IMG/VR virus record: IMGVR_UViG_2693429637_000011
Source: a virus
Taxonomy: Duplodnaviria > Heunggongvirae > Uroviricota > Caudoviricetes
Length of the DNA stretch: 64,000 nt
Reading direction: 5' to 3' (one strand)
Numbering within the stretch: position 1 is the first letter of the stretch; the number at the start of each line of letters is the position of its first letter. Shown here piece by piece: positions 45,001 through 51,000 of this stretch. Made by a program: the position numbers.

Positions 45001-48000
45001 CCGCCCATGCCCCCCAGCGCTCAAGAACCTGCCGGATATCACGCATCAGTATCTTTACCCCATCCGCGATGAACCATAAGGACGCCATTGACGACGGCGT
45101 GCTTTTTCGCATCTTTATCATCAATGTATTTTCTGACTGTAGCACGATTGCAGTTCAGTATTCTGGCGACTTCTGTCTGATTTCCCCTGGTGCAGATCAG
45201 TAATTCAGGTATCGTTTGAATTTTAGCATTCATCAAATGTTCTCCAGTTCGGTGATTTTTATCCCCACTCTACCGCCAGGCACTTTCACGCCGCGAATTA
45301 CGCGAATGTCATCGAATTGCTCGTCGTCTTCCGCAAATCCGGCGTGGATAAGAGAGTCGAGTAAACCTTTCAGGATGTTATCGAGGTCGCGACGGCGGGA
45401 ATCTGGTGGTTCAGCAATAATTGTGATGCGAAGTCGTGATTTAGTGAAAATGTCTAATCTGAGTTGCCGGATGATTTGCTGTACGTCTTTTCGGTATTTC
45501 TGGCCTTTATCGCTGATGTAGTACTGGCTTCCCCGTCTTCGCCAGTAGGTATTCACCGTCGGCGGCCAGGGAAGCACAAACTCATATTCATTCATGACTT
45601 AATCTTCCCCTCCTTCAGCAATATCGCCTGCGTCCTGATCACGCCTTCCAGGTGGTAAAGTCTGGCGTCGTTGTTGTCGAGAATTCGGGTGCGTCGGTCG
45701 ATCTCCGCGTGGCAGTCACTACAAGCCCATGCACCGATCAGGTCGTCAGGCTTCATTCCCGTTCCGCAAATTCCAGCCATCCGGTAATGTGCCAGAACTG
45801 TCGTTTCAGGATTGCCATTGCATACGCCGTAAATCCGTACCTGGCATTCTCTGCCGCGCGCTTCTTTGCGTAGGTTTGCCATCATCTTATTCCTCGTACA
45901 TTGAACTATCCGGAGTGACTATTAAATCTTGCACGACGTCTGAGCCACCGGACATCCCACAGGTGAGACGTATAATTGAAGGTTTTTACATCAGATTCGT
46001 TGGGGATTGGCCTGGGTTTATTTCGGGAGCGTTTCGTTGGAAGGTAATTGCAGTTTTCACAGACTATATCGGTAATGCTTCGTCGCTGTCGTCTCATTCA
46101 TACCTCCTGTCGGTAAATCTGACACCCTGCTCCACAGCCCAGGAAGTTGTGTACTCAATCAGGCTTGCCATACGCTTCACGCTCATCTGCGCACTGCTTT
46201 CGCGGATATTGACGTATTCACCTTCAAGACCTGGCAAAACATCAGCTTCCTGTTTTGTAGCCACGGCATGACCGCTGATTAACAAAACTTTCCACTGTTC
46301 TGGTTTTAGCCATCTGCCGCACCACTGAACCTGTCGGGAGATATCAGCGACCATTGCGTGAAATTTGGCATTTTGATCGAGATTCCGCTTGTAATCGGTG
46401 ATGCGGATCGTAACGGGTTTGTCTTTATCGAGAGTTGTTGCAAGGATGGCGTTAATGGCGAATTGTTGCTGCTGCTTACTTCGGAGGAAGATAGTCTGGT
46501 TCATTATTCCCTCTCACTGGATTTTCCCAACAAAAAAGGAGCCGAAGCTCCTTTAGTTTCAGAATTCAAATTGTCTTGCCCGCAGGCTTTTCAGCATTGG
46601 CATGGCCCGCTGGATAACGGAACTTGACATGTCGAGACGTGTTACCTCCCTCAGTAGCGCGTCTCTGTTCTTCGTCACCATGTAGATGGTCTCAAACGCA
46701 ATGTCATACAGCTTGTTCGTGTATGAGGAGTTCAGCTCTTTCATAATGGGATACAGGTGTTTGCTGAGGTCCTGGGCTTTTTCCATCCAGAGCTGCATGT
46801 AGCAAAGGAGGATGATTTCTTCGGCTGTGAATTGTGGCTGAATCTGCGGCTGCTGTTCGGTTGGTGCTGTTTTTCCCTGGCTGAAATAGCAGTCTTCCAG
46901 TTTTTCGAATACCTCCCACGCCTGATCAGTTTCGAGCATTTTTGCGTGACGGGCTGCGCCGCGTTCTGTCCATAGGATGAGGGAGCGAACGTTACGGGCA
47001 ATTTTCACAGAGTAGTTAAAAGCTACTCTGTGCTTGAACTCACGTAAAGTTTCACCTTCAAGTTTGAAGAAGTGTTTTTCCTCAATGAAACGACCTTTGT
47101 TTTCGTGGTGATTCTGGCGAATACGAATAGCTTCTGTGCCGTAAAGGTGCGCCAAAAGTTCGGTAGTGATAACGGGGATCTGCTTGTAAGTAATCGTGGA
47201 GAGTGTTTCAACAGAAACTTGAGTTGTCATAATGACGCCCTCGAGTGGTTTCTAAACTATCACCACCGTCAGGTTCCTAATCATCGGGTGGCGAGACGTA
47301 CAGGGTTAGGAACTACCGGGAAACCAACCGGCGAGCTTTTCAGCTCCCCTATACGCCCCACCATAATTCAGATGTGCGTGTGCATACGACAATAAAAAAC
47401 ACGCTCGCGGCGTGTCTCTGTCGCGGTTTCTATCCGGGGTTCCTAATCCCGACGCCAGATTTTGCTGGCGTGCGATGAATATAATCCCGGATACGCGACG
47501 TTGTCAAACTGATGGCATTGCAGATCCCTACGCAATGTAACACTATGTGTTATACATTAATAACGGAACAAAAAATGCGCATTTTTAAAAACGCCTGGTT
47601 TGAGCGATTTGCACGCAAAAACAAAATATCCGACCAGTCACTGCGCGAAATTGTTAAACAGGCTGATAACGGGCTTATCTCAGCAAACCTGGGTAACGGC
47701 GTTATCAAGCAACGTCTGCCACGAGTCGGTGGCGGCAAATCTGGCGGTTATCGCACAATCATTTTCTATCGCGTCGGCACAACGGCCTTTTTCGTATATG
47801 CATACGCAAAAAATGAACGTGAAAATATAACCGCTACTGAGGAAAGTGCATTTCGGAAGGGGCTCCTCACGTACTCAATCTAACAGATGAACAACTGGCA
47901 CAACTGATTCTACAGGGTCAGTTTACGGAGGTACCCAATGAGTAAAAATTACCGCAGTGATGCGCTTGCATCCGTACATGAAATGATGGAATCGCTTCAT

Positions 48001-51000
48001 GATATCGGCGCAGTAACGAAACAGACTATGCGAGAATTCGATGAAACTTGTCTCCAGCCAGCGCCGGTAATGTCTCCGGAAAGGATCCGTGCACTGCGCG
48101 AACGAGAGCATCTGTCTCAACCTGTTTTTGCCAGATACCTCAACGTCAGTAAAAACCTGATATCAGACTGGGAACGTGGTGTAAAACGGCCGGGAGGTGC
48201 CGCTCTTCGCCTTCTTTCAGTCGTAGAGAAAAACGGAATCCAGGTAATATCATGATACTCCAATACAACAAAACCCGCCGAAGCGGGTTTTCATTAGAAG
48301 CACCTTTAGTTTTGCTGTTCTATTTTAAGCTTGATAGTTTCATACAAAACAATAGTTGCGCCTGTTTTACATAATTCCCGGCTGTCATACGCACGAGACC
48401 AATAACACAACCAGTTCTCGAGATCTTCTCGAGTATAGGTTTTGCAGGCCAGTCCCTCTGCCATTTCCACGATTTCATCGCCTGGTGCTGTTAACTCATA
48501 GCCATTCAACAACAAGAAGACATAACCAGCCATCATAGCTGTTCGTTTGTTTGCATTAGCAAATGGATGATTCTGAATCAGACTTTCAATCAATACTGAT
48601 GCCAGTACAAACATGTCATTAGTCTGTTCATACCATCGAACCATGCTGGGACGAGACTGAGAAGAACTTAAATTATCAACACTCAGCACACTAACAGGTT
48701 CATCTGGTGTTTGAAGCTCAATTAAAAGGCGATTAATTTCGGTAAGATCATCAAACGAAAGGTAGTGCACTCCTTCAACAATCTCAGCCATAGAGCACAA
48801 TACCCATCATTACACTTTTGAAAGTTCTTCCATTGCCTTCTCGTAACGAGAAAAACCGAAATCGAAAGCATTTTTCACCTGCTCACGATGAGTGCAATTT
48901 TCATCGATAGCCGGGCGCGGAGCTGCCACAACGCTTTTATCGCGAGGGGGAATAGTCAATCGCGGGTGTTTTTTTAGTGCGTAGCTCATTGGGTGTACCC
49001 TTACTTCTCCGTCCTGTTCTTTAACAAAAATCAAGTCAATACAAAATTAGTCAGGCTAATGTTGTTAGCATAGCCTAATACCGATCGTATTCACAACCAC
49101 AGTACGTGAAAAAACCCGCCGAAGCGGGTTAAGTGCGGGTGCGTTGAGGATGCCTGACACATCAGAGGTGGCGAGGGATTTCTCCCTCGCCTGGTCTCTT
49201 ACTCCTCAGGTTCGTAAGCTGTGAAGACAGTGACCTCCGTCTGACCGGTTCGGATTCGTACCTCGCAGAGGTCTTTCCTCGTTACCAGTGCCGTCACAAT
49301 GACGGTAATACAGATGACGATCAGGGCGACTAACATCGCCTTTTGCTGCTTCATAGCCTGCTTCTCCTTGCCTTTCGGCGCGTAAGAGGCTAACCTACAT
49401 GTGTCTAGCATGAAATTGGCCTCAGATTAATGTTAGGCGTCTTGCAGGACGCGTAATGTTAACTGGGGCTTTTCTCTGTCTGCCTTACGGTGGCATGCCC
49501 GAGGCAGACAGCCTCAAGCACCCGCAGCAATTCTACTTAACTCTCGCTTTACCGCAAACCGTTTTTACCCGATATGGGAATTCCCATATCGTAATGAATT
49601 CAGTTCCCTAGTCGATCCATCAAAAACACAACCAGGCAGTAAACGCCCACAACAGCAATAACAGCCAGCGCACCTTCCATTGCCAGTGATATATCATCCG
49701 ACATATTCCCTCCTTTGGTGTTAATCCCGGCGAACGTTTTTACCCCCACCGACAAATAACATATACTAAAAAATCAATAGCTATAGCAACGCCTGTAATT
49801 GCAAAGGCTTCAAGCCAGATCATTGGCGCACCTCCAGCGGCGGTTCTGGTAGCGGCATCCAGTCGGTTACATTGCGGCTCGGTGTTTCGAAAAATTCATC
49901 ACCATCACGGACTACATCAAAAAACTCACCGTCTCGATATTGCGCATAAAGAACGAATGCGCCATCACATAAAATAATTACGTGCTGACCGTCATCCGGC
50001 ATTCGCTCACTACAGCTTATCCAACCATCCAGAGTTACCGGATGGTTGGTTGACGTTTCCGAGATTTCCCGAAAATTATTGGTTGACGAACCCTTCTTTT
50101 CCCGAAAGTTTCCAGCCTGAAGCATGGCGGCGCTGTCTGGCGGGGCAGCATATAGCGGCACGTATATTTCCGGTTCCTTATCAGCACCAGGTTGCTCTTC
50201 CAGTGAGAATGTCTTTCCGGTAAATCGATTCATATAAAGCACGGGCTCTGCTTCCAGCGAAGCCTGAGCAACAAGGGCCAGTGCTAAATCCAACTCAATT
50301 GCCTCGAGAGAATTTTTGAATGCTGTCTGTTTTACTGCAAATTTCATCGCCTTTACATTTTCACTAACATGACTGATTAACTGCTCTTTTGTAAAAGTGG
50401 TCATCTCATTCTCCTTTGATGCGAATGCCAGCGACAATTGAAGCCTGATAGCTAATTTACTCACAGTACCGCCTCCTGAAAATTCCCCTGATAGAAAGCC
50501 AGCACGCGCTGCATAACTTCACTATTCCGGCACTCGCGACAGATTATGTTCAGGCGTCTATCGTAGCGGCGAATTTCTCCGTCTGGTAACTTTCGAATCA
50601 ATGTCTGGTCAGTTGTTTTCTCCGGTGTCTTACGCCATACGCGATACACCTGTTCTGATGCAAAAACACCGTATTTACCGGACATGTATAAATCGCCACA
50701 AGCCAGTACATCCACAAGGCAACGTCTGACTGAATGCCAGCCTGCTCCCGTCGCTCTCTCCAGTTGCGATATCGTCATGCGTTCATTTTTTGCGTACCAA
50801 TCCGATAATTCGTGCCTTCAGTTCTTCCCGCTGTTCGTGTGTAAAAGGTTTCGCCATAAGCGCCTCCGGCAATCACTTTTCCGACACAATACGACCGGAT
50901 GAATCGACAATCTGTCGAACAATATCCCGGTGCTTGTTCAGCTCCCGCAGCGCGGCGCAGACTCGCTCCCACTTCTGGACCTGTTTTTTGGCGCGACGAA

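Follow-up and report, generated by a model that had tools for sequence, protein, structure and literature searches.

The nin region of a lambda-like prophage of Escherichia coli or Shigella houses three unrelated toxin-antitoxin (TA) cassettes adjoining one another. The prophage is carried on a stretch of 64,000 nucleotides (nt) from the IMG/VR virus record IMGVR_UViG_2693429637_000011 (Caudoviricetes), hereafter the window. The best overall explanation, and one we consider highly probable, is that this island is a mosaic accessory ('moron') segment of the nin region, made up of three self-contained cassettes that would move independently between prophages, the RelE-type toxin of one of them having decayed. 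An earlier, sequence-only reading of the window had placed at this site three TA modules of different mechanistic classes, lying between antirepressor and replication genes: a RelE/HigB-like toxin with a helix-turn-helix (HTH) antitoxin (47575-48255, plus strand), a Doc toxin with a small upstream partner (48306-48989, minus strand) and a canonical hok gene with a structured leader (49199-49354). All three gene sets are present and their mechanistic diversity and placement stand; the intact RelE-type toxin does not, its gene being frameshifted. The pairing of toxins with antitoxins, originally by position, now draws on conserved synteny for Doc and its 59-residue neighbour and on family-level knowledge for RelE and HTH (PMC11980606).

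The earlier reading had taken the site to look like a defence or addiction hotspot rather than an incidental insertion. The view of it as a hotspot is supported by the permutation of cassettes in the sequences of related prophages: comparison across these loci, as had been suggested, revealed one to three modules in varied combinations at the same site. BLAST alignment of related loci with the window places breakpoints of homology at 47536, 48265-48289, 49111 and 49590, and the following segments are found elsewhere.

46878-48244: N-terminal half of the antirepressor gene (ant), C4 and IsrK RNAs and the RelE/HTH module, near integrases in other prophages
47536-48289: RelE/HTH alone, in O157:H7
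48265-49570: Doc and hok, in APEC O1 and strain 120899
49111-49590: hok

Doc and hok occur together in APEC O1 and in strains 120899 and 2014C-3655, hok is combined with RelE/HTH in O157:H7, and RelE/HTH stands alone in other related prophages. The whole of the 2.6 kb from 47300 to 49900, with all three modules, is present in 33 of 5426 complete E. coli genomes, with sequence identities of 99.4% (E. coli 23CRST047) and 99.2% (O104:H4 outbreak lineage); all three modules are also found in MFDS1022581, outside those 33. Of the same genomes, 217 have the RelE/HTH module and 125 the Doc module, while 4726 match some part of the 2.6-kb query, presumably for the most part through hok. None of 50,697 deposited phage genomes contained 80% or more of the island, the hok part alone being present in 280 records and the ant/RelE part in phage PhiR12_3.

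The Doc cassette is bounded by two terminator hairpins.

48270-48291, minus strand: terminator hairpin 3' of Doc, with the end of the HTH gene on its other side (terminator scan)
49111-49130, minus strand: hok terminator, copy 2 of a 20-nt repeat

These hairpins comprise the two copies of an exact 20-nt direct repeat, AAAACCCGCCGAAGCGGGTT, at 48270-48289 (copy 1) and 49111-49130, which bracket the cassette. The repeat pair flanks Doc in 10 E. coli loci and, in the Doc-less O157:H7 prophage, there is a single copy at a precise junction, with the sequence to the left of copy 1 on one side and that to the right of copy 2 on the other. Gain and loss of cassettes would take place by recombination at short shared sequences, the identical terminator hairpins around Doc offering the clearest case.

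The RelE/HTH module is the cassette in which decay is evident.

47575-47883, plus strand: frameshifted RelE/HigB2-family toxin gene, 95 native plus 7 out-of-frame residues, 102 amino acids (aa) in all (Pfam PF06296, translation, alignment)
47938-48255, plus strand: HigA2/YiaG-like antitoxin with C-terminal HTH, 105 aa, intact (HTH_3, PDB, PHROG)
47536-47554, unstranded: palindrome TGTAACAC-TAT-GTGTTATA, candidate operator at the left edge of the RelE/HTH cassette (inverted-repeat scan)

Both genes had been named correctly by the sequence-only reading, although the ATG at 47512 from which its feature began is spurious, the real start lying at 47575, and the toxin is not whole. The toxin open reading frame (ORF) matches PF06296 at 4.6e-38, but over profile positions 1-95 of 120 only, and falls short of a full-length BECR-fold toxin of ~120 aa. 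Alignment with intact alleles locates a 1-nt deletion between 47860 and 47861, where the window is without a C, and it is this deletion that puts the conserved C-terminus LTDEQLAQLILQGQFTEVPNE out of frame. Three-frame translation follows the displaced coding remnant to 47945, 8 nt within the antitoxin gene. The intact relatives encode 123 aa and overlap the antitoxin start by 8 nt, an overlap lost through the frameshift; one of them, 98% identical, is present on 654 contigs. Among the outcomes that the earlier reading had listed as counting against it, a damaged toxin gene is what we find, for this module only.

Sequencing error was considered as the source of the frameshift and rejected, since the same deletion is present in independent assemblies (the O104:H4 lineage, 23CRST047, AST198 and cM8a) and the exact 102-aa product is encoded on 8 public contigs, including one from Shigella sonnei. 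Eight copies of the window allele were compared (the window, O104:H4, 23CRST047, ML35, NCCP15648, AST198, LZHX12 and cM8a). None is intact: every one has lost a single nt at one or two of three sites (gene nt 43, 269 and 287), and four combinations of these deletions are seen. Of the 363 nt of the toxin region 11 columns vary, 3 of them through indels, against 2 of 318 nt in the antitoxin gene, both synonymous, so that the antitoxin protein is identical in all eight. The exact antitoxin sequence occurs on at least 1000 contigs, and the 90% protein cluster of the toxin contains many further truncated forms of 68-112 aa.

An AlphaFold2 (AF2) model of an intact relative (mean predicted local distance difference test score 84.8), for which the top Foldseek matches in the PDB are Vibrio cholerae HigB2, indicates that the truncation would cost half of helix 87-101, all of helix 105-113 and strand 117-120. 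In a recent classification PF06296 is grouped with HigB2 as a toxin-first family, and the HigA2/YiaG-like antitoxin is modelled as binding the C-terminal helices of the toxin (Gerdes 2025, PMC11980606). The same order, a toxin followed by an antitoxin with a C-terminal HTH, is found in the window. The antitoxin itself matches HTH_3 (1e-7), HigA-2 in the PDB (5jaa/5j9i, 8e-8) and phrog_2104 (3e-43). With HigB2-HigA2 of V. cholerae and the 'relE-yiaG' modules of PF06296 (PMC11980606) the window module shares, besides its gene order, the BECR-fold toxin, an antitoxin with an N-terminal neutralising part and a C-terminal HTH, and an upstream palindrome. It differs in the frameshift of the toxin gene, in the window and in all sampled copies of the allele, so that the module probably acts as antitoxin or repressor only.

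It would be a different matter were all three modules functional, the 102-aa protein still being an active ribosome-dependent mRNase or slippage restoring a phase-variable toxin. The truncated ORF does retain the part aligning with residues 41-95 of V. cholerae HigB2; two of the three lesions fall in short runs (A5/A4 and GGCGG/GGGG), and close relatives carry mixed combinations of them. However, efficient slippage needs longer runs than 4-5 bases, two lesions are present together in some copies, and substitutions accumulate in the toxin rather than in the antitoxin. The lost segment holds the terminal β-strand and two helices of the intact model; since the C-terminal helices are the modelled antitoxin surface in this family (PMC11980606), an active toxin without them would escape neutralisation. 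We therefore regard full function of the three modules as highly improbable. Most likely the RelE-type toxin is inactive, and the cassette is a decayed type II system whose toxin lacks its C-terminal 28 residues and whose orphan HTH antitoxin/repressor would be the sole functional remainder. This protein would bind the palindrome at 47536-47554, which is all that the window allele and the 84% allele of O157:H7 and MFDS1022581 have in common upstream, their other flanks being unrelated.

Intact alleles of the toxin include a 92-93% group and the 84% allele just mentioned; in MFDS1022581 (RelE allele 84.5% identical) none of the three TA modules is broken. In the intact 92-93% alleles (loci L005-L012, positions 4001-5001) the RelE and HTH genes are followed by a second HTH gene of ~101 aa in a three-gene arrangement. 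The window has no such gene, the Doc cassette standing in its place.

The second cassette pairs a Doc toxin with a protein of a largely unannotated family.

48306-48791, minus strand: Doc (death-on-curing) Fic-fold toxin, 161 aa, motif HPFANANKR (PF02661, TIGR01550, PDB)
48810-48989, minus strand: candidate Doc antitoxin, 59 aa (phrog_2208, synteny with Doc)

As the sequence-only reading had it, Doc is recognised with ease: it scores 122 bits against TIGR01550 (cut-off 38.65) and 3.1e-11 against PF02661, and matches the Doc structures of Enterococcus faecalis (9vzc, 1e-12) and phage P1 (3k33/3dd7). The HPFANANKR motif is intact and conforms to the kinase-type version of the Fic motif that is the consensus for Doc, HxFx(D/N)(A/G)NKR (PMC4177925, PMC13034048). 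The 59-aa ORF lies 18 nt upstream. No Phd/YefM-type antitoxin was found upstream of Doc in Pfam, NCBIfam or PDB searches, this other conserved partner being present instead; it has no match in Pfam, NCBIfam, the PDB or PADLOC and belongs only to phrog_2208, annotated as function unknown. The family is small, comprising 17 clusters in a word-indexed search and 39 representatives among 1.84 billion proteins. Its C-terminal 23 residues are nearly invariant and its N-terminus is variable except for RLxIPPRDK. In the AF2 model residues 1-33 are disordered and residues 34-57 form one confident helix, without a globular domain.

In all 10 contexts examined outside E. coli the 59-aa ORF is directly upstream of Doc. 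These are a tail/baseplate cluster in Ewingella, a dinI/umuDC neighbourhood in a read-archive assembly, a multi-TA locus in Salmonella and seven of seven loci from other genera (Serratia, Providencia, Morganella and Kluyvera), in which Doc is 66-75% and the partner 64-76% identical. This conserved synteny makes the assignment of the two as partners well supported. The Ewingella pair (L017/L018, 3001-3670) sits inside the tail/baseplate cluster of a myovirus-like prophage, behaving as a mobile moron well outside lambdoid nin regions. In Salmonella enterica (L021, 2496-5009; GCA_011585245.1) the pair belongs to a denser cluster of four adjoining TA modules, namely hok, the 59-aa ORF with Doc, ParD/ParE and VapB/PIN.

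The clustering could also be biologically meaningless, a chance build-up of selfish cassettes in a non-essential region tolerant of recombination, with the 59-aa ORF no antitoxin at all. The nin region of related loci indeed tolerates varied inserts (queH, DUF968, DUF1367 and extra antirepressors), and the decay of the RelE-type toxin shows weak selection on at least one module. Yet Doc and hok are intact in every copy examined, and the 59-aa ORF has stayed beside Doc in seven genera, its identity being 64-76% and its C-terminal helix invariant, which argues for selection on the pair. Chance accumulation seems to us distinctly unlikely.

The 59-aa protein and Doc would form a type II system in which Doc would phosphorylate EF-Tu, halting translation, and in which the partner would neutralise Doc by means of the invariant helix at its C-terminus, as Phd does with its own; this last step is suggested by the Phd-Doc structures. 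With Phd-Doc of phage P1 and E. faecalis (PDB 3k33, 3dd7, 9vzc) the module shares the Doc fold and consensus motif, a small upstream gene whose C-terminal helix is likely to neutralise, and a prophage location. It differs in that the partner, of 59 aa, shows no detectable homology to Phd and lacks a DNA-binding domain of the Phd/YefM or AbrB-like type, and in the ~30 additional C-terminal residues of the window Doc.

The third cassette is a hok/mok/sok locus.

49105-49523, minus strand: hok mRNA, ~419 nt (Rfam RF01794, minimum-free-energy fold, hokW-sokW primer matches)
49199-49411, minus strand: mok, 70 codons (ATG at 49411), with in-frame hok, 51 codons (ATG at 49354; hok 49199-49354) (ORF list, PF01848)
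49368-49478, plus strand: putative Sok antisense unit (sequence reading and fold)
49512-49523, minus strand: 5' tac element
49137-49149, minus strand: 3' fbi element

Here the earlier call of a canonical hok with structured leader is borne out. The Hok peptide matches PF01848 (HOK_GEF) at 2.9e-22 and 78 bits (cut-off 22), Hok/Mok matches phrog_251 ('MokW-like host killing') at 5e-32, and public records name the exact Hok sequence HokD. The leader (49349-49523) scores 116.9 bits against Rfam RF01794 (cut-off 59); since the match to this 'sok' model is on the hok-sense strand, the element detected is the hok leader. When 49523-49105 is folded, the 5' end GGGUGCUUGAGG pairs with CCUCAACGCACCC just 5' of the terminator in a tac/fbi arrangement, and the 419-nt transcript has a folding energy of -177.6 kcal/mol (z = -7.7). 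The Sok candidate, ~70 nt from ~49403 and overlapping the mok start, has an unpaired 5' tail, followed by a long hairpin and a U run (-32.9 kcal/mol, z = -6.3). Its putative promoter, TTGCCT-17 nt-TAACCT at 49368-49396 (plus strand), is below the threshold of the consensus scan; we take it to be the sok promoter by analogy with sok of plasmid R1. The chromosomal mokC/hokC pair has the same arrangement as mok and hok here. Weak Rfam matches to isrK (49109-49190) and to rsmX/istR (48267-48357 and 49109-49196) were dismissed as terminator hairpins and the 3' end of the hok mRNA rather than separate RNA genes.

By sequence, the locus appears to be a complete type I system and is closely related to hokW-sokW of Sakai prophage 5 (Sp5) and phage 933W (Takada et al. 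2021, PMC8621323), with which it shares family and a lambdoid prophage host. Common to both are a 51-aa Hok within an in-frame Mok and a leader and 3' end that match the published hokW-sokW primers, YO-350 exactly (49141-49165); tac and fbi are likewise found in the window, together with a putative Sok promoter and a candidate Sok hairpin. The locus is 92-96% identical to MokW/hok loci of deposited phages. It differs from hokW-sokW in its allele (HokD in RefSeq) and in having the Doc cassette as neighbour in place of the Sp5 neighbours. The stable folded hok mRNA would be silenced in two ways, by pairing of its 5' and 3' ends (tac-fbi) and by antisense Sok, a short-lived RNA that covers the mok start; loss of Sok would allow translation of Mok and Hok, and Hok would then damage the inner membrane. 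By analogy with Sp5, this would occur mainly after prophage induction or loss of the element.

A further likeness is presumably that to relBE-hokD (relF) in Qin, a cryptic lambdoid prophage of E. coli K-12, where a type II module of the RelE superfamily directly adjoins a hokD-type gene. The Qin hokD follows relBE in the same orientation and is not known to have a mok/sok leader of its own, whereas the window hok has the full regulatory leader. The type II modules of the window belong to families other than Qin relBE.

An anti-phage role has also to be weighed, in which the island would be an abortive-infection hotspot: on shut-off of host transcription the labile antitoxins would decay and Hok, Doc and the RelE-type toxin would kill the cell before phage release. 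Several TA families are documented as defence systems, and PMC8621323 cites a report that hok/sok of R1 lowers T4 plating. The RelE/HTH cassette runs counter to the early operon of the phage, an orientation frequent among morons expressed in lysogens, and related loci gather further TA modules, as the Salmonella locus with hok, Doc, ParDE and VapBC illustrates. Against this, a scan of all island proteins with PADLOC-DB 2.0 matched no defence family, returning generic HTH and weak Fic matches only (E >= 1e-5; the Fic-domain match is to candidate PDC-S23 at E = 0.002-0.0045), and in all sampled copies of the window allele the RelE-type toxin, one of the three, is broken. Moreover, the closest tested relative, hokW-sokW, is a type I system turned on after mitomycin C that favours the phage carrying it, whose release it doubles, rather than hindering others (PMC8621323); by analogy, these closest experimental data would suggest that the phage itself is served, in its induction and lysis. 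The defence interpretation is accordingly unsupported, in contrast to that of a hotspot, and we judge it unlikely.

Several points weigh against the account of a mosaic of three mobile cassettes with one decayed toxin. The 20-nt repeat could be no more than a common kind of terminator, with no part in recombination, and related hairpins are present 3' of Doc in Ewingella and Morganella. The 59-aa protein is without detectable similarity to known antitoxins, its probable role being suggested by position, conservation and analogy, and no promoter for the Doc operon passed the consensus promoter scan. The truncated RelE-type toxin, judged from the model of the intact relative, keeps the four central sheet strands (residues 37-78) together with the conserved GGYR and KNE motifs, and may retain residual activity.

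The island offers a clean natural example of prophages assembling, shuffling and losing TA cassettes, with one to three modules in E. coli and four at the Salmonella locus. What is modestly new is the unannotated family of Doc partners, the recurrent decay of a toxin with preservation of its antitoxin and the repeat-bounded cassette; the combination is new and the kinds are known. Because all three families are known and annotated, current views are not overturned. RefSeq already names the proteins RelE/ParE family toxin, HTH protein, death-on-curing toxin, hypothetical protein and HokD, and a literature search by the RefSeq accessions of the island proteins returned no papers. In phrog_2208 (~40 representatives in 1.8 billion proteins) we would see the likely antitoxin of an Enterobacterales Doc subfamily. 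The presence of the island in the O104:H4 outbreak lineage and of the exact truncated toxin in S. sonnei means that an effect on prophage stability or induction could matter for pathogen biology.

Two bolder ideas may be put forward, which taken together we regard as rather doubtful. One is that the 59-aa protein represents a new minimal class of Doc antitoxin and that TA cassettes of the nin region are swapped at the shared 20-nt terminator hairpin; a disordered head with RLxIPPRDK and one invariant helix, without a DNA-binding domain, would then imply regulation unlike that of Phd-Doc. The other is that the HigA2-like antitoxin has been kept after decay of its toxin for another role. This could be protection against related incoming TA modules or, alternatively, control of the back-to-back IsrK/C4 RNA/antirepressor promoter ~30 bp away, which would tie a TA remnant to prophage induction.

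The antirepressor unit concerned lies immediately to the left of the RelE/HTH cassette on the minus strand. A near-consensus promoter, TTGACA-18-TATATT (47507-47478), precedes an IsrK-like RNA (47394-47471; RF01394, 69 bits) and a C4 antisense RNA (47284-47368; RF01695, 66 bits), both upstream of the ORF6N/P22-type antirepressor gene; a match to the c4 a1/b1 target at 47431-47484 is near threshold. This promoter is back to back with the RelE/HTH promoter region, and the unit, which travels with the RelE/HTH cassette in other prophages, is reminiscent of the control unit immI in P1 and of isrK-anrP in Gifsy-1.

Read along the minus strand, the order of genes in the region runs from a DnaC-like ATPase (51669-52409) through DUF1627, DUF977, DUF551 and two tiny hydrophobic ORFs to hok, the 59-aa ORF and Doc; then come the RelE-like and HTH genes on the plus strand and, beyond them, the IsrK- and C4-like RNAs, the antirepressor (46559-47230), NinB, NinE, DUF1364 and RusA. 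At the O104:H4 locus RusA is followed by NinH and the Q antiterminator. The two very small hydrophobic ORFs between DUF551 and hok, of 34 and 27 aa (49603-49707 and 49743-49823, minus strand), have no family match, and the former corresponds to hypothetical protein WP_001278450.1 in other annotation. The DUF977 gene (50461-50856, minus strand) has one additional A in a run of A (A6, against A5 in O104:H4), which splits the 131-aa ORF and leaves a C-terminal ORF of 105 aa, making this the second frameshifted gene in this part of the prophage.

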